From an uncultured delta proteobacterium (GTDB taxonomy: Bacteria; Desulfobacterota; BSN033; UBA1163), in assembly GCA_963708295.1 (NCBI GenBank), contig CAVPSJ010000005.1:96001-160000 (forward strand): a DNA stretch of 64,000 nt. The letters run 5' to 3'. A program made the translations under genes and the position numbers. Positions 2,677 through 11,711 of the stretch are shown here, piece by piece. How positions within the stretch are numbered: position 1 is the stretch's first letter; the number at the start of each line of letters is the position of its first letter. The notes beneath the pieces are model-generated. The model had not been told where the DNA came from, did no database searches, and saw only the letters and a program-made list of their open reading frames with translations.

Positions 2677-2914
2677 AAACGCATAGGGCATAGCGCGTAG
2701 CGCAAGGGGGATTGACCACCCATGAGGAAAAGTAAGAGCCACCTCTATATAGAACTAATGATCAGGCTATTGGCTTCTTCCTGAAATGTTGATTGTTCAT
2801 TTTAGTTCCATAATACAAGATTTCAAACGGCAATTGGTAATGTGCTAATAACATTCCTTTCTTCCCAAGTTATTTTACCCCAAAAGACTCCCCACAAAAC
2901 TCCCAAAACACTCC

Positions 2915-2966
2915 TTGACAACTTAATAATAATGAAGTATCTTGCATGAGATTGATTTCATGAAAT
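2915..2966 (+). promoter_or_regulatory. sigma70-type promoter with a downstream palindromic operator
   Basis: TTGACA (2915-2920), 17-nt spacer, TATCTT (2938-2943); perfect palindrome ATTTCATGAAAT at 2955-2966. Confidence 0.55.
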
Positions 2967-3017
2967 AAAGTTTACTAGTGCATGCTGCAAACCTCATAAG
3001 GGAGAAAGGAGTTGATT

Positions 3018-3361
3018 GTGAAACATCTATCTAAATTACTTCGTATTTCACTCTTGATTGCTCTATTGGCTTTGCCAATAACCGCTTGTATGGAAGGTTC
3101 GATGTTCTAATTTTGACGGTTGAGACACCTCAGGATAAGGCGACTGTTAGTACGCCTACGGTCACGGTAAGTGGCACAGTCACTAAGACGGCTGAGGTGA
3201 AGATTAATGACGTGGTAGTGCCGTCTAAAGGTAGCAAGTTCTCCACCGATATCAAGTTGACCGAAGGCAGCAATGTCATTAATGTTGTCGCTAAATCGGG
3301 TAAGGACACGGAAACGAAGACACTGACTATTACCTACAATCCAAGTAAGCAGTCTGGCTAA
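3018..3361 (+). CDS. Small Ig-like-domain lipoprotein (frameshift near 3095)
   Basis: RBS AAAGGAG then GTG; signal peptide with lipobox ITAC; Thr/Val-rich beta domain with TVSG and LTEGSNVINVVA. Confidence 0.6.
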
Positions 3362-3510
3362 GAACAGGAATCAAATTCCGAAACTGGGAGTAATTGACGG
3401 AGGAGAAGACTTAAAATTGCCTACAATAAATTTGTTTACTTAGATTATTAGGCACTACAGGGTCCAGAGATATATAAATATTTCTGGAGGTTAAAAACCT
3501 TGATAGTCGG

Positions 3511-3545
3511 GCCGCTATCTGAACGTGGAGGATAGCGGCTTTTTT
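3511..3545 (+). terminator. Rho-independent terminator
   Basis: GCCGCTATC / GATAGCGGC stem followed by a T6 run. Confidence 0.7.
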
Positions 3546-3604
3546 ATGCAATGAACTAGAGCGGTCTTTCAAAACTTCGATTCAGAATTAAGGGAGGAAT
3601 CAAC

Positions 3605-3931
3605 ATGGCAACATGGACATTTCTTACGAATCATGCAATTGTACTTTTCTTTCTGGCAAAACATCCATTAATCACTGGACGAGAGTTGTCAGGATTAATA
3701 GGGATTACGGAAAGGTCAGTAAGAAATATTATTTCTGATCTCGAATCAGAGGGGTATATCCAAAAGTCCAAAGAGGGAAGGCAAGTAAGGTATAAAACCA
3801 ATCCGCATTTACCTCTTCGGCACCACACTCAGAAGGATAAGGCAATAAGAATTCTCCTCGAAGCATTAGACTGCGAACAAATACGAAAAGGAGCCAAGAA
3901 ACGGGAAGCATCGTCGAAGGCAGTTCTATAA
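3605..3931 (+). CDS. Winged-helix (MarR/ArsR-like) transcriptional regulator
   Basis: WTFLTNHA start, GITERSVRNIISDLESEGYI HTH, KEGR wing; strong RBS GGAGG. Confidence 0.8.
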   Translation: MATWTFLTNHAIVLFFLAKHPLITGRELSGLIGITERSVRNIISDLESEGYIQKSKEGRQVRYKTNPHLPLRHHTQKDKAIRILLEALDCEQIRKGAKKREASSKAVL

Positions 3932-4160
3932 AAAAAGGGACTCCAACTTTCTGTGTCTCCTGTTTCATCGCCTCCGTCGATGTATTCAGGTCAAGTAACG
4001 ATCTACCCCCTTGTTTCAATATTTCAAACGATAATCTTCATTACTCAGTATGAGCCACCATTGCGGCTTTGTAGGTGCTATACGTAACATAATCTGCTTT
4101 TTCTTGTGATATTAGTTAGTTAAGGGCTGTTTTCCATTATCACTTTTTTCTCTATCCCTG

Positions 4161-5096
4161 TCAAGATAATTCGTTTTCAGCGCCTCCGAGTAACTCCATG
4201 CTCTCCTGTTCGTCGTCATCCTCTTGTTGCGCCTGCGTTCTTTGCAGAACCACCTGCATGGCCTTGTAGTAGTCTCGTTGGACCTTGAGGTTGGCTACGC
4301 GGCAGTAGCGCTGCGTGGTGGTAATCTGGCCATGCCCCAGGAGGTCCTGGATAGTCGCAAGGTCAGCATCGGCATTAAGAAGCTGTGTGGCCATGGTGTG
4401 GCGAAGACGATGACATGAGACGTTGAGTCCACTTTGTCGCCCATAGTATTCGATCCTCTTCTGAATGCCTCGGACCGATATCGGTTTGCCTCTCATCGGT
4501 CCCTTCTGCACCAGAAACAATCCTCTGGCTTTCGAGGATCGTTTCGCCAGATACACCGAAAGAGCGGATTGGGCATCTTCACTCATGTAGACGACCCGAT
4601 CCTTAGCCCCTTTTCCATGGAAGACAAAGATCTGTCTTCTCCCGTACTCTACCGCATCAACCGTCAGCTCAGCCACCTCCTGGACCCGAAGGCCGCAGCG
4701 GAGCATCAACATGAACATGGCCCGGTCTCTCAGATCCGTGATGCCATCAAAGAGGCCCCTGACCTGGTCATCCTTCAGGTGCCGGGGCAGTGGCTTGGGC
4801 AGACGGAGCGAGATCCGGGTGACAGGGTTGATGATCGATCTGCCTTCCTCATTTGTGAGATAGTCGAAGAACAGACGGATCGTTTGCAGGTAGCACGTGA
4901 TCGTCTTGGGTGTTCGTCGCTTTCGGAGGAGATGATCGACATAGGCTCCGATCTCTGTACGAGTCACATCAGGGAGAGGCACGGTAAGCCATCTGATGAA
5001 CTGATCGAGGATGTTGACATAGCTTTTGACCGTGTGGGCTGAGTAGTTTTTTCTCTTCAAGGCTCTCCGGTACCCGATCAGCTCAGTAGGTTCCAT
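4161..5096 (-). CDS. Tyrosine recombinase (XerC/D-like), second gene of the pair
   Basis: Catalytic motifs GLRVQE, GKGAKDR, HRLRH, LGH, TQRY. Confidence 0.92.
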   Translation of the reverse strand: MEPTELIGYRRALKRKNYSAHTVKSYVNILDQFIRWLTVPLPDVTRTEIGAYVDHLLRKRRTPKTITCYLQTIRLFFDYLTNEEGRSIINPVTRISLRLPKPLPRHLKDDQVRGLFDGITDLRDRAMFMLMLRCGLRVQEVAELTVDAVEYGRRQIFVFHGKGAKDRVVYMSEDAQSALSVYLAKRSSKARGLFLVQKGPMRGKPISVRGIQKRIEYYGRQSGLNVSCHRLRHTMATQLLNADADLATIQDLLGHGQITTTQRYCRVANLKVQRDYYKAMQVVLQRTQAQQEDDDEQESMELLGGAENELS

Positions 5097-6096
5097 CGAT
5101 CCCTCCTTTCTCGATAATGGCCATGGCCCGGAAGTACTCTTGTTCGCGGGTGGTGTCAGTGAGCCGGGCGTATCGGCGGGTTACCTCGATGTCCTGGTGA
5201 CCCAGTAACTGCTGGAGACATTCCAGGCGCATCCCCGCGTTGAGAAGCTCGGAGGCAAACGTGTGACGCAGACAATGGACCGTGTAGCCCTTCTGATTGA
5301 GGCCTGCTTTGTTGAGATATTTTACGAAAAGGCCTCTGCCGGTACTGTAACAGAGATGCCCATTGCTCTGGCCGTAAAAGACGAATTCCTTGTTCTTGTC
5401 CCTTCGCCTCAGCCAAAGCTTGATGGCAAACAGCGCATCATCACTCAGATACACCACCCTCCCCATGCTGTTCTTCTCTCCCTCGTACAGGTCAACCTTT
5501 CTACCTTTGATGTCCAGATCGTTTAACCTCAGTCCCAAGGCCTCGCCGATTCGTATCCCTGTCCGTAAAAGGAGAAGAAATAGGGCCCGGTCCCGGATGT
5601 CGTCCATCACACCCAGAAGTTTTCTCACATCGGAGGGGTTCATGGCCCGAGGTAGGGTCTCTGGCAGCTTCAGCTTGATGCCCCGCTTAAGAACGGACCC
5701 AGGGATGATATCTTGCTCCATCAGAAAATGCACAAATGCAATGATGCAAGCCACCCTCGTCCGCACCGTGGAGATTCGTAATCCCCGATCCTGCTCCTGC
5801 TCGATGAAGCCTTCCAGGTCCCTCCGTTCGAGTTTCTCGATTTCTCTCTTGCCTAACTTCCCATAAAAGTCCAGGAAGAGCCTGACGGACGTAAAAGAAC
5901 TGGCGAGGGTCTTCGGCTTGTGATTCAGGCGCCGCTTGTGGCGCATGTAGCACTCGAACTGTTCCTTGGCGGGAATCTCCAGGCAAGAGAGCTTCTGGAG
6001 GATGCGGTCGATTGGGGTGAGTGAAAGAAGCTGTTCACATACTACTTCATTTCCACTTTTGACGGACTCATTGGTGATCGGCTGTCCCTGGGTCAT
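5083..6096 (-). CDS. Tyrosine recombinase (XerC/D-like), first gene of the pair
   Basis: Catalytic motifs GIRIGE, GEKNSMGR, HCLRH, LGH, TRRY. Confidence 0.92.
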   Translation of the reverse strand: MTQGQPITNESVKSGNEVVCEQLLSLTPIDRILQKLSCLEIPAKEQFECYMRHKRRLNHKPKTLASSFTSVRLFLDFYGKLGKREIEKLERRDLEGFIEQEQDRGLRISTVRTRVACIIAFVHFLMEQDIIPGSVLKRGIKLKLPETLPRAMNPSDVRKLLGVMDDIRDRALFLLLLRTGIRIGEALGLRLNDLDIKGRKVDLYEGEKNSMGRVVYLSDDALFAIKLWLRRRDKNKEFVFYGQSNGHLCYSTGRGLFVKYLNKAGLNQKGYTVHCLRHTFASELLNAGMRLECLQQLLGHQDIEVTRRYARLTDTTREQEYFRAMAIIEKGGIDGTY

Positions 6097-6273
6097 TTCT
6101 CCTCCTCCTTTTCTTTTTCAAGAAAAAGCAGAATAGATCATGACCCTTAGCCGTTCTAACGGTCAATCCATTTTGTTACGTATAGGTAGGTGAAGTCAAC
6201 GGTTTTTGCCTGATGCTTCTGCCAGCTAATGTTCTTATTCCTACGCTATGCGCTATGCCCTCTGCCCTATGCG

Positions 6274-7200
6274 TTATTCACTTAGGAAGTCAAGGATAGC
6301 CCGATTGACTTCCTCCGGGGTTTCCCACATGGGGATGTGGCCGCTTTTCTCGATCTTCCGAAATTTCGAACCCGCGATGGCCCGATGGAGGTTCTCTCCC
6401 AATGGGGAAGGAAAGACGAGGTCCCTTTCTCCCCAGAGGAATAAGGTAGGCTTGCAAATAGCGGAGAACCGATCCTTGAGCTTCAAGGCCTCCTTGGCAT
6501 GTTTGAAGGTGGAGTAGAGAGCCCAGGTCGTCCCTTTGATCCTGGAAAGTTGATACTGCCGGTTCACGACTTCCGGAGTGACAAGTTTGATATCCGAGAT
6601 ACATTCCAGAAGGATCTGCCTGATCGAATTCTCGTTCCGGACTGCCATGACCAGATAAGGGAGGAATGGAATATTTTTGATCGCCGCCAACATTCGGAAG
6701 GATTCATTTTTGACCTCGTGGAGAATATCCGGAGGAACACAATCAATCAATATGAGCCGATCGACCCGTTCGGGAAAGAGGATCGCCATAGCCCAGGCAA
6801 CCCCTCCGCCCATCGAATTTCCGATCAGCGTCGCCTTCTCAATCCCCGCCCTGTCCATGAAATCCTTTAAACAATCGATGTAGGTCTCCGGGGTGTAAGG
6901 AATCTTGGGCCGGTCTGAGAAACCGTGACCGATCAGATCGAGGGCATAAACCCTATAGCCTTGCGAAAGGACTTCGATCTGCCTTTCCCAAACCCAGATC
7001 GCGGCGCCATAGCCATGAATCAACACGAGAGGGCGGCCTACTCCTTTCACAACATAAAAAATCGTATGGCCATTGATCTGAATCGTCTGCGGAGAGAGTG
7101 AAGGGTTCCAGTCGAACCGGGTGGGCCTGACCAGAGGAATGCTTCGTTCTCTTAAGAAAGGGGTCAATAAGACTGAGAGAATCCATAGAGGGTGAGACAT
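6274..7200 (-). CDS. Alpha/beta fold hydrolase
   Basis: LIHG, DLIGHGFS, GNSMGG nucleophile elbow, WGERD, SGH. Confidence 0.9.
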   Translation of the reverse strand: MSHPLWILSVLLTPFLRERSIPLVRPTRFDWNPSLSPQTIQINGHTIFYVVKGVGRPLVLIHGYGAAIWVWERQIEVLSQGYRVYALDLIGHGFSDRPKIPYTPETYIDCLKDFMDRAGIEKATLIGNSMGGGVAWAMAILFPERVDRLILIDCVPPDILHEVKNESFRMLAAIKNIPFLPYLVMAVRNENSIRQILLECISDIKLVTPEVVNRQYQLSRIKGTTWALYSTFKHAKEALKLKDRFSAICKPTLFLWGERDLVFPSPLGENLHRAIAGSKFRKIEKSGHIPMWETPEEVNRAILDFLSE

Positions 7201-7435
7201 AGAATCTCACTTCTTTGTGAATCACTCCGATAAATATAAATTCCAATCACCAATTACTGAAAGAAGAATTATTGAGGAGTCGAAAATTGCGAAGACATAT
7301 TGTCATAAAATCTCCCCTCACCCCTCTTTACCAAAGAGGGAGAATTCCTCCCTTTTGCAAAGCCTGCCTGCCGGTAGGCAGGGGAGGGAAGTTCCATTAC
7401 TCCAGTACTCCAGTATTCCGGATTTTTGAAAAGAC

Positions 7436-9245: not shown

Positions 9246-9319
9246 GTCAAATTCGGATTTCAGGATGTTTCCTCTCACTCTCCCCCTCTCCCCGCCGGGG
9301 AGAGGGTGGGGGTGAGGGG

Positions 9320-10461
9320 TTATGGTTTTACAATCAACGAGACTTCCTTCGACTTCTTCTCTTTGGCTTCCGTCAAAAGGCTGACGATCGACTTCACCAC
9401 CAACTGATAGAGGAAGGGGTTGGGCCGTAGCGGATGGAGAGGTTTCTCCAGATCAATGGCCACGGACAAGGAAATCTTCGCCTCTTCTTCTCTTCCCAGT
9501 TTGAAAAGAACGTAGGCCGTCTCTTCCAACCTTCGCCGATAAAGAAGCTTCCGCTCTCCGGAGAAGAGTTCGGACAAGGCCTTCTGATAGATCCCTTGAA
9601 ACCGCACCTCTTTCTGGGCCGGGTTGAGGACAATCTTCGACTCCTCGGCCTCCGAGATTTCATCCGCAAAAGGCCGGATGCCCTCCTCCTCAATCCTCCA
9701 GCTGGAAAGGAGATCTACTTTAAGAAGGTCCCCTCCTTTTGCCAAAAGACGATCGTCTCCGGCGATGTCTGCCGCTTGAAGATAGGAATAGATCAACGGC
9801 TGGTTATAGTCTTTTCTGACCCTTTCTATTTCCCCTTTCGCCTGGACATAGCCCTGAGGCACGACCCCTTTCCTTGCAAGATTTAATTCATAAGCCCGTG
9901 CGAAGAGGCCGGCCACATAGGAAGGCTCGACTGGAACGATTGGAAACGGGCCTTTTTCTTCAACGCTTTTATAGAAACTCTTGAACTCCTTCCGCGTCAT
10001 CTCCCCATGGGAGAAATCGACGATCCCCAGCTGATCGCTCACGATTCCGTAGGTGACCGTCAGACCCCGGCCCGGATGAGGGATGACAAGCCAGAGAATC
10101 CGGTGGCCGAGAAAATCAATTCCACTCGCGTACCCTTCCCCGGTCTCTTCCCGCACGGGACGAAGGACAGGGGGCTCTTTGCCGGATGAAACCTCCTCAA
10201 CCACAATCCCCTTGCTCTTCAGCCGGTAAAGAGATCGCTTGATCATTTTTCGGACCTTCTTATCCGGGATCGCTTCGGACATCCGGTGGAGAATCTTGAC
10301 CGTCAACGGGTCGGAAGGGTGACCAAAGACTCAGCCAGCTGACCGCCGGTTTGGGGGTCTTTTTCTAACCACGGGAGAAGATATTGAAATATCTCCTCAT
10401 CGGTTTTCCCGCCTGCCATGTCCGTCTTTATTCGGTCCATCAGGGTTTCAATATGATCCAT
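9320..10461 (-). CDS. Conserved hypothetical helical protein (frameshift near 10315)
   Basis: 328-aa ORF (KRSLYRLKSKG) plus an upstream open stretch from ATG 10461. Confidence 0.55.
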
Positions 10462-10525: not shown

Positions 10526-10775
10526 GAGACTGTATCATCATTAGCGAAAAAACACTCCTCTTCAAGATGGGATCCGGCTAGGCGGGATCAGGTGACAAGG
10601 CTTTAGAGCGGAAACCTTTTATCGGTCAACTACCGGGCTGCAAGCCCTTGAAACGACACCATTGAGGGAACAAGCTCGATTACCGATCACCCTGGATAAT
10701 CGCATTCTAAAGCCAAGGAGCCTGATTGCCTGTCCCGCCCATATCTCCCCTCCATCATGATGGCGATACAGTCTC
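10526..10775. mobile_element. Non-coding MITE-like element (GAGACTGT ends), copy 1
   Basis: Perfect IR TGAGAGACTGTATC (10523-10536) / GATACAGTCTCTCA (10765-10778); internal motifs shared with 25639-25866. Confidence 0.7.
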
Positions 10776-11711
10776 TCAGGAGGGAGGCGTTAAAGGGGGG
10801 CTGATGATCGTCTGCTGGATCGTCAAAAGCATGGTCATGGAAAGATTCACAAAAAGAGTATTGCGGGACAGAAGTTCCAGTTTTCTGTGGTCGTGATAAT
10901 TCCCCCCCCAGACCTGAATCAGATTCCACAGGACAAGAAAGCATGGGATCCCCGAGAGGAGCAGCAGCCAGTAGGGACAGTCTTTCCACCACATCATTTT
11001 GATAAAGGAAAACCCGGTCAAGACCGACAGTCCGACGTAAAGATCTCCCATCCTTTCCTTTCCGAACCGTACAACCAGGTTCCTTCTTCCAACGGTGTAA
11101 TCCGCCTCTCGATCGGGGAACTCGTTAATCAAGATCACATTAAAAACGGAAAGACCCACGGGGATGGAGAGCAGTAAGATCTGTGGGCTGAAGAAGCCCG
11201 TGAGGAGAAAAAAGCCCGTGGCAATGGGCAGCCATCCATAACAGAACCCGATCAGAATTTCTCCCAGGCCACGATGAGACCATCGAAAGGGTTTGCTCGA
11301 ATAAAAAAATCCAAAAAAGAGTCCCAGTCCCCCGAGCAGGAGGGTTCGAAGATCGGTCTGGTATCGGAGATAGATATAAGATCCGACGAGAATCGCCGCG
11401 GCCAAGCATCCGTATCCCAGGAATAGCGAAACCCAGGGCGGGAGGACTTCTCCGACCAAGACTCTTGACCCGCCTGAAAAACGGTTAAAGTCCCGATTGA
11501 TTCGATCCCCTTCCAGATCGTTCCAGTCTCCTACATAGTAAGTCATCCACATAATGAGGATGACCGCCGTTGTAGAAAGGACATAAAGTCCCGGAGGGCC
11601 TTTGTATCCCCCCCGCCACGCCAGGATAAATCCTAAAATCAAAGGAAGAATTCCCACGAATAGAAAAGGAACTCGTGAGAGCCTCCATAAGGCAATAAAA
11701 TAGCGTTTCAT
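10776..11711 (-). CDS. menA: UbiA-family prenyltransferase (MenA-like)
   Basis: DWNDLEGD and NEFPDREAD Asp-rich motifs, FSGGSRVL, multiple TM helices. Confidence 0.7.
   Translation of the reverse strand: MKRYFIALWRLSRVPFLFVGILPLILGFILAWRGGYKGPPGLYVLSTTAVILIMWMTYYVGDWNDLEGDRINRDFNRFSGGSRVLVGEVLPPWVSLFLGYGCLAAAILVGSYIYLRYQTDLRTLLLGGLGLFFGFFYSSKPFRWSHRGLGEILIGFCYGWLPIATGFFLLTGFFSPQILLLSIPVGLSVFNVILINEFPDREADYTVGRRNLVVRFGKERMGDLYVGLSVLTGFSFIKMMWWKDCPYWLLLLSGIPCFLVLWNLIQVWGGNYHDHRKLELLSRNTLFVNLSMTMLLTIQQTIISPPLTPPS

Follow-up and report, generated by a model that had tools for sequence, protein, structure and literature searches.

A probable mobile element of two tyrosine recombinase genes between 12-bp inverted ends in an uncultured delta proteobacterium and its relatives

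The window analysed here is a stretch of 64,000 nucleotides (C5:96001–160000 of a 20-contig assembly) from an uncultured delta proteobacterium. At window positions 4078–6185 it contains a 2108-bp unit in which two overlapping tyrosine recombinase (YR) genes lie between exact 12-bp inverted ends. This unit is very probably an autonomous mobile element of insertion sequence (IS) size, served by a co-evolving pair of Xer-like YRs that would cross over within 7 bp between the inverted ends. To judge from comparison of sequences, the unit stands for a real, compact and widespread YR element family, apparently undescribed and belonging to the multi-recombinase kind of transposon. An IS-sized two-recombinase element using a 7-bp core between inverted ends, with the inner repeats as additional sites, had been proposed in the initial annotation of this DNA; copies in differing flanks, conserved ends and inner repeats, the behaviour of the spacer and one junction contig speak for that proposal.

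The element and its relatives

The genome holds three full copies, namely the one in the window (C5), C8:163755–165861 and C12:3–2109, and three remnants (C17:30886–31556, C11:217487–217672 and C17:393510–393856). Between the C8 and C12 copies, whose right flanks differ, there is no mismatch in 2107 positions; the window copy is 94.4% identical to both. Contigs from other samples part from the window sequence right after position 6192. The presence of identical copies in different right flanks, together with multi-copy relatives in unrelated flanks (see below), argues that the unit is mobile. All five right ends in this genome read TGTTACGTATAG followed by GTAGGTG and diverge beyond it, so a variable target duplication is not what the 7-mer represents in this case. 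The other copies in the genome had been predicted to carry differing 7-bp flanks, which they do not; different 7-mers mark other lineages.

Relatives of the upstream recombinase, P0002, were detected in 9 of 41 related genomes at E<=1e-50, with up to four copies per genome in unrelated flanks. Genomes G010 (four copies), G019 (three) and G003 (three) are multi-copy, and in these the second recombinase gene is always adjacent. Two of the G010 copies (contig 2, L021; 1516487–1518577 and 1522791–1524881) lie in inverted orientation 4.2 kb apart and could flip the intervening segment. When one genome per species was scanned, 303 related loci, spread over several phyla, were confirmed; the statistics on ends and 7-mers given below are drawn from 80 of these that were kept. 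The metagenome-assembled genomes to which the 80 loci belong are labelled delta proteobacteria, Thermodesulfobacteriota, Syntrophus, Nitrospirota, Thermodesulfovibrionales, Aminicenantes and Manganitrophaceae, with one bin labelled Nitrososphaerales. The P0002-side end was present as the exact 12-mer in 63 of the 80; 10 loci have it with one to three mismatches, and in 7 it could not be located. It is near-invariant although protein identity drops to 54% within the set. In most related elements having both ends the inverted repeats are exact. Elements in which both ends were located by script all measure 2016–2503 bp, and two recombinase genes were verified in all 16 elements for which open reading frames (ORFs) were listed or genes extracted. 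Further copies in relatives, in different flanks and with ends conserved across phyla, exist as anticipated. Among the PLSDB plasmids no relative exceeded 33% identity; two plasmid regions that were inspected turned out to be IS91-associated integrases and not RIT elements.

The ends are not chance occurrences: arithmetic predicts about 0.6 copies of the 12-mer in the 4.95-Mb genome, counting both strands, and nine were seen, in every case at a copy or remnant of the element. Five relatives together have 22 occurrences of it, and the reversed control has 0.

P0002 (duoA) and the downstream recombinase P0001 (duoB) are the sole long ORFs between the ends and overlap by 14 nt. Each has a Pfam Phage_integrase domain (PF00589; E 4e-36 and 9e-37), N-terminal SAM-like domains and the R-K-H-R-H/W-Y residues that, with this domain, identify the tyrosine recombinase superfamily. 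These residues are R182, K208, H274, R277, H300 and Y309 in P0002 and R137, K165, H229, R232, H255 and Y264 in P0001, all invariant in the family alignment, and those of P0001 align with the XerD motifs GLRVSE, GKGNKER, HVLRH and LLGH..Y. The best curated models for both proteins are XerA, XerC and XerD, every score being below its cut-off (top NCBIfam scores 192 against 220 for XerA and 190 against 335 for XerC). With the integron integrase model TIGR02249, whose cut-off reflects the IntI-specific insertion, the two proteins reached 112 and 78 bits, short of the 265 needed, and hence do not class as integron integrases. Ratios of nonsynonymous to synonymous substitution rates are 0.04–0.15 for P0001 and 0.11–0.25 for P0002; both genes evolve under purifying selection.

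The terminal repeats extend to 16 nt at 94% according to a repeat finder, which also returned an inner inverted repeat of 17 nt at 94% (4090–4106 / 6119–6135). The family-wide conserved core of the latter, CCTGCTTTTTC / GAAAAAGCAGG, is kept in 18 of 18 aligned elements. In this alignment of diverse elements from several phyla the P0002 side runs from the end through AAAT-nGATTGA, GGTCATnAT and CCTGCTTTTTC to the ribosome-binding site and ATGACC, and the P0001 side carries GAAAAAGCAGG 4 nt inside the end. The hexamers of an outward-facing promoter-like site near the P0001-side end look conserved by eye in the same 18 elements, and a promoter consensus scan found three sites against 1.4 +/- 0.9 in shuffled sequences. 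A promoter-like sequence at 6170–6199 on the minus strand (TTGACT-18-CAAAAT) consists half of the target arm (AAGTCAA) and half of the element end; a hybrid promoter directed into P0002 might arise where the element inserts at AAGTCAA-like arms, the alternative being chance. The coordinates are collected in Table 1. The overlapping YR genes with their full R-K-H-R-H-Y sets, the perfect 12-bp ends with 15 of 16 positions in the extension, the inner repeat and the GTAGGTG directly outside both ends had each been described in the initial annotation, and each was recovered.

Table 1. Features of the element and of its immediate surroundings, in window coordinates.
Feature	Position	Strand	Remarks
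Terminal inverted repeat, P0001 side	4078–4089	+	CTATACGTAACA
Terminal inverted repeat, P0002 side	6174–6185	+	TGTTACGTATAG, exact reverse complement of CTATACGTAACA
7-bp spacer GTAGGTG, P0001-side junction	4071–4077	+	Copy kept constant within a lineage
7-bp GTAGGTG, P0002-side junction	6186–6192	+	Copy following the target in other lineages
Inner repeat, P0001 side	4093–4106	+	4 nt from the end; putative accessory binding site
Inner repeat, P0002 side	6119–6132	+	41 nt inside the end, between promoter-like site and ribosome-binding site; putative operator/accessory site
P0002 (duoA), upstream tyrosine recombinase	5083–6096	-	337 aa; N-terminal extension of ~45 aa
P0001 (duoB), downstream tyrosine recombinase	4161–5096	-	311 aa
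Outward-facing promoter-like site	4136–4164	-	TTGACA-17-GATAAT, 11/12 consensus match; reads out through the P0001-side end
Internal promoter-like site upstream of P0002	6137–6166	-	TTGACC-18-CATGAT; conserved blocks GATTGA, GGTCATnAT
Right target arm	6193–6202	+	AAGTCAAC, fits consensus WAnTC..YAA
Left target module	4030–4070	+	GATAATCTTC at 4030–4039, beginning 41 nt ahead of the 7-mer; arm GCTTT directly next to the 7-mer
Passenger cassette, 1.3 kb, neighbour outside the element	2776–4070	+	Bounded by CTTCCTG (left) and GTAGGTG

The insert sits between a DctM transporter gene (1417–2676, + strand) and a convergent alpha/beta-hydrolase gene (6274–7200, - strand). In G011, G015, G003, G013 and G012 these two genes are 108–142 bp apart between two alignment anchors, and in G001 the match coordinates place them side by side. 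At the level of genes the orthologous spot is empty in these six relatives, as far as can be read from the gene positions.

The 7-bp spacer, its target and the cassette arrays

For the analysis of the spacer the elements were oriented with P0002 reading from left to right, giving 35 unique complete insertions. The flanking 7-mers are identical in 24 of them (CACCTAC 15, CATGTCG 4, GTAGGTG 2, CAGGGTG 1, CAGGAAG 1 and CTGCTCT 1). In the remaining 11 they are not identical; positions 5–7 match in 11 of 11 and the differences are confined to positions 1–4. Within a lineage the 7-mer on the downstream (P0001) side does not change and the upstream one varies: CAGGGTG at the P0001 side of six loci has the partners CTTGGTG (twice), CAGAGTG, TCAGGTG and GGAGGTG, CGCGGTG (P0001 side, two loci) pairs with CCGAGTG and CACCGTG, and CAGGAAG pairs with CCGAAAG. 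The orientation of the constant-side spacer is fixed per genome, in 4 of 4 copies in G010 and 3 of 3 in G003. Judged by these natural insertions, the 7-bp flank is a crossover spacer and not a target duplication. Such a pattern would be expected of a YR crossover if the first exchange tests about three bases beside one end, with one strand pair decisive. The proposed 7-bp core stands in so far as the 7-mer acts as crossover spacer; the target is larger than was claimed, being a palindromic site that often lies within a 47-nt module.

Around the 7-mer the flanks are arranged as an imperfect palindrome, with G-A-n-T-W at positions -5 to -1 and TT(G/A) at -10 to -8 upstream, mirrored downstream by W-A-n-T-C. 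Upstream, T occupies -2 in 53 of 65 flanks; downstream, 53 of 56 flanks have A at +2. The aligned flanks indicate that this palindromic target is a weak copy of the joined ends of the element itself. Insertions are intergenic, a spanning ORF being restored in 0 of 34 cases with one 7-mer kept (0–1 of 34 on removal of the element), a result that shows intergenic targeting and cannot fix the length of a duplication. The left target module in the window forms the 3' end of the neighbouring 1.3-kb cassette. Among 61 unique upstream flanks from other genomes, 6 have [GA]TAATC at a distance of exactly 40 nt from the 7-mer, one more has it at 41 nt and two at 51 nt. The layout GTAATCnTCAAC-N28-GTAGGTG occurs at about 20 sites in this genome.

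An 85-bp repeat, GTAGGTG...AACCTGCTCC...CTTCCTG, is present in about 20 copies in the genome, and each cassette upstream of it ends in GTAATCnTCAAC, a variable hairpin and GTAGGTG. Eleven copies occupy intergenic gaps in C17:2–50 kb (L033–L035), within a mostly co-directional run of unrelated genes; further sites are C4:1075403, C14:82732, C19:98630, C8:65197, C12:2110 and C11:217493. The ends of the repeat are target-type sites, GTAGGTG/CACCTAC being the commonest spacer of the family and CTTCCTG/CAGGAAG also frequent. Two right ends of the element abut 85-bp repeats. At C17:30886–31627 a truncated copy, of which the right 671 bp are present, breaks off at CCTCAG within the P0002 gene and is fused there to the CTTCCTG-type end of such a repeat, which looks like recombination at a secondary site. 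Four further short repeat families with many copies in the genome, at 7266–7391, 9264–9326, 10526–10787 and 3460–3547 of the window (~95 bp, ~50 bp with both-strand matches, ~250 bp and ~90 bp, respectively), are unrelated to the element.

The cassette to the left of the element carries a lipoprotein-like ORF, apparently frameshifted, with a signal peptide from ~3018 and a Glucodextran_B-type domain at 3086–3361, followed by a winged-helix ORF at 3605–3931. It is found a second time on C8, in different flanks: C5 and C8 align over window positions 2775–6192 and the DNA left of 2775 differs. Taken as the true element, this shared stretch of 3.4 kb was rejected because the cassette copies are 97.8% identical and the adjoining elements 94.4%, and because the 12-bp ends delimit the element in all other genomes. 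We read the difference in identity as two element variants inserted independently at the same site, the ends of two cassette copies. The gap between the DctM and hydrolase genes (2677–6273) is an insertion hot spot, in which G008 (L160) and G002 (L161) carry different inserts of ~3 kb. That of G002 contains a PIN-domain-like ORF (by eye) and terminates in GTAATCATCAA-N27-GTAGGTG; that of G008 ends with a similar motif followed by GCAGGTG.

These arrays allow a further reading, compatible with a mobile element, in which the element is more than selfish DNA and the recombinase pair is the engine of an integron-like system that moves passenger cassettes bounded by sites of the same kind. We consider it rather unlikely. 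In its favour are the ~20 repeats with target-type ends, eleven of them in the C17 array, the right ends abutting repeats and the truncated copy joined to one, the reappearance of the 1.3-kb cassette on C8 in different flanks, and the inserts of G002 and G008 with similar terminal modules at the same intergenic spot. The repeat was found in 10 of the 41 related genomes, 7 of which have both repeat and element and 3 the repeat only, while 2 genomes have the element only. This co-occurrence is weak, related genomes are not independent samples, and G010 has four copies of the element and one repeat. The cassette ends lack the 12-bp terminal repeat, and the 85-bp repeat has no significant fold (z -0.47), stable or attC-like. 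The element may also simply parasitise such sites, as other elements target repeats. The likeness to integrons consists in the association with arrays of unrelated, mostly co-directional genes (with an inferred strand bias) split by a repeated site. Unlike integrons, however, the genome has no integron integrase above cut-off, the repeat shows no attC-like fold and the core sequences are different; in the C17 array no Rfam family reached its gathering score. Were the reading correct, and we give it a low probability, the pair would be the autonomous centre of a non-integron system for capturing cassettes, which it would excise and insert by the 7-bp, partly homology-tolerant crossover that also serves the element itself. 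Cassettes would then end in GTAATC-hairpin-7-mer, begin after CTTCCTG and be strung together by the 85-bp repeat. Should the link to the arrays hold, there would be a second and independent means of capturing cassettes, and the target module common to Nitrospirota and Thermodesulfobacteriota would, if it is true, mark a cross-phylum cassette pool.

Very unlikely, in our view, is a transposon, cut-and-paste or replicative, whose staggered cleavage would duplicate 7 bp of the target, with a strong preference for GTAGGTG. Identical 7-mers at most of the unique complete insertions (24/35), and the IS-like look of inverted ends with a direct repeat, would suit such a transposon, but neither a DDE, an HUH nor a serine enzyme is encoded within the element, only the two YRs. 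Moreover, the strict polarity of the 11 non-identical pairs, with one side constant within lineages, is a pattern that fill-in target duplication cannot yield, and the fixed orientation of the constant-side spacer in G010 and G003 is also against it.

Joined ends and a possible route of movement

A search with the pattern end-N7-end matched three metagenome contigs and, among viral contigs, none (0 matches). One of the three, of 2246 bp (L168), has the order P0001<-P0002<-end-ACAGGAA-end and then 26 nt belonging to the P0001-side end. By its layout this contig carries the predicted circle or head-to-tail junction, and in length it would correspond to a single unit with an overlap left by the assembler, its first 689 bases being unseen. 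The other two (L166, L167) are near-identical and have a lone end-CACCTGC-end site between unrelated genes (positions 1090–1120 and 1501–1531), with 11 nt of element-like sequence beside it and no recombinase genes in the 1–1.5 kb on either side.

Movement of the element could proceed as follows. Circularisation would bring the two 12-bp ends to either side of a 7-bp spacer and so form a lox-like site, TGTTACGTATAG-N7-CTATACGTAACA. This joined site would recombine with an intergenic imperfect palindrome resembling TTRnnGAnTW-N7-WAnTCnnYAA, the crossover taking place within the 7 bp. Matching would be needed for the three bases beside the P0002-side end, the other four being free to differ. One specific strand pair would be exchanged first, and the remainder might be settled by replication or by a homology-tolerant second exchange. 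After insertion the spacer of the element would be found at the P0001-side junction and the 7-mer of the target at the P0002-side junction. The inner repeat CCTGCTTTTTC probably serves as an operator or accessory site. From the outward promoter near the P0001-side end, transcription would run over the circle junction into P0002 and the recombinase genes, which resembles the junction promoters of some insertion sequences. Circularisation, strand order, protein–DNA contacts and promoter function are features that we infer; the anatomy of the element, its copy number and conservation, the target consensus, the spacer statistics and the phylogeny are direct observations.

Several points weigh against the element and route proposed here. 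Mobility and mechanism come from comparison of sequences, not from movement observed in an experiment or in reads. The junction in the 2246-bp contig could be a head-to-tail tandem instead of a circle. The evidence from sequencing runs consists of assembled contigs of older runs, each with ~0.2 or less of the sampled words, and the contigs of four runs contained neither a circle junction nor an empty site for the window copy. A junction of the kind foreseen in the initial annotation, circle or tandem, was seen in one metagenome contig, with the spacer ACAGGAA, and in none of the four runs. The exact empty site foreseen there was not found; the six relatives show an empty site at gene level only, their intergenic DNA being too diverged for one exact to the nucleotide. 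Conversely, empty counterparts of 43 insertions in other genomes were sought in this genome by means of their flanks, and for 0 of 43 was an adjacent pair found. The left junction has been sampled independently only once in this genome, as C5 and C8 have their left flank in common and the C12 copy starts at a contig end, and no contig end supplies a match to the missing left flank of the latter; the degenerate C17 copy has CATCCTG at its left junction. The orientation of the spacer relative to the genes differs between G003 on the one hand and this genome and G010 on the other, and the model has no explanation for the flip that this needs. Nor does the model explain the need for two recombinases.

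Relation to known recombinase systems and meaning

In the searchable full-text literature (subscription journals, e.g. Ricker et al. 2013, and supplements lie outside it) no two-recombinase element with inverted ends is described, and the family seems not to have been described before. The comparison set comprised two RIT trios from plasmid pHG1, two Tn554-like operons and host Xer. The duo proteins score 42–74 bits with RitA/B/C, 46–103 with Tn554-like proteins, 90–119 with host Xer and 116 with each other. In a maximum-likelihood tree of 33 rows, duoA (100/100) and duoB (100/99) are sister clades (95/88) of broadly matching internal topology, and RitA, RitB, RitC, TnpA-like, TnpB-like and host Xer proteins fall outside them, with long branches and a small sample. 

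RIT elements, whose mobility is likewise inferred from distribution in the available text of PMC3414803 and PMC10214605, are similar in being small and in having only adjacent, overlapping YR genes between terminal inverted repeats. According to the same part of PMC10214605 they have three recombinases and 34-bp ends. The present element differs in having two genes instead of the ritA-ritB-ritC trio, 12-bp ends instead of 34 bp, and proteins outside the RitA, RitB and RitC clades (small sample). Its hosts are uncultured Thermodesulfobacteriota, Nitrospirota and others, those of RIT mainly alpha- and beta-proteobacteria. For Tn554/SE the available portion of PMC10214605 describes two YRs, imperfect or perfect inverted end motifs around a 6–7-bp spacer in the joined form, target specificity and a one-sided spacer 'footprint', the spacer being placed at one specific junction on insertion; in SE it is renewed from the attL side at each jump. 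The element shares the two YRs, the target specificity and the inverted ends around a spacer; the polarity seen in 11 of 11 non-identical pairs may be akin to the 'footprint'. Unlike in SE, its P0001-side 7-mer is constant within lineages and apparently kept, which implies retention and not renewal. Tn554 and SE have one ordinary recombinase and one of over 600 aa, together with TnpC/Srap (and Tfp), and carry cargo; the present element encodes two proteins, of 311 and 337 aa, and no third ORF lies beside them. A close sequence relation of the duo proteins to Tn554/SE was not found.

That the element is a degenerate member of a known family, either RIT minus one gene or of the Tn554/SE type, is accordingly highly improbable. 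Recombinase genes alone between inverted ends recall RIT, gene overlap and spacer 'footprint' resemble Tn554/SE as portrayed in the accessible part of PMC10214605, and the best plasmid match of P0002 is a Tn554-like operon. However, the both-ended elements are uniform in size (2016–2503 bp) and the 16 inspected have two genes, the scores with RitA/B/C lie below those with host Xer and with each other, and the sister clades stand outside Rit and Tn554-like proteins with neither a 600-aa recombinase nor a TnpC-like gene.

Integrases of the CTnDOT/NBU type also use a 7-bp crossover region in which only the bases beside the first exchange site must match, and in this the element is like them. These are single large integrases with arm-type sites and host factors, and they serve large conjugative or mobilizable elements. 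With XerC/XerD-dif and Cre-lox the element has in common that the joined ends would make a symmetric 12-7-12 site and, with XerC/D, two paralogous recombinases; the closest solved structures and profile models of the duo proteins are Xer proteins. Unlike XerC/XerD the element is multi-copy and mobile and its Xer model scores lie under the cut-offs. Since its two end arms have the same sequence, the proteins cannot each take one half of the site in the manner of XerC and XerD. A fixed chromosomal recombination system, such as an invertible switch or a dimer-resolution module, would fit the Xer-like proteins, the segment between inverted sites and the two inverted copies 4.2 kb apart in G010, but is hardly conceivable, being contradicted already by the copy-number and synteny data (multiple copies in unrelated flanks, a patchy presence in 9 of 41 genomes, absence from the orthologous spot in six relatives) and by NCBIfam Xer scores below cut-off. 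BIM, considered as a two-recombinase element, was rejected as a relative; the available text of PMC3414803 defines it as a bipartite module of one recombinase plus a conserved SMC-domain protein, and both genes of the present element encode recombinases.

IS-sized elements driven by tyrosine recombinases alone are barely characterised; the mobility of RIT is unproven and the route of Tn554/SE is unresolved. With two genes, 12-bp ends and a 7-bp spacer, the present family is near the minimal size for such an element, and it is abundant in uncultured anaerobic lineages, its hosts being uncultured sediment and soil bacteria in which genes of this kind are now labelled XerC/XerD or integrase. Dozens of natural insertions point to a spacer rule (last three bases match, first four free), a palindromic intergenic target and a strand bias. 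The family is therefore a tractable model of how YRs transpose, why several paralogues are employed and whether swapping the spacer retargets insertion.

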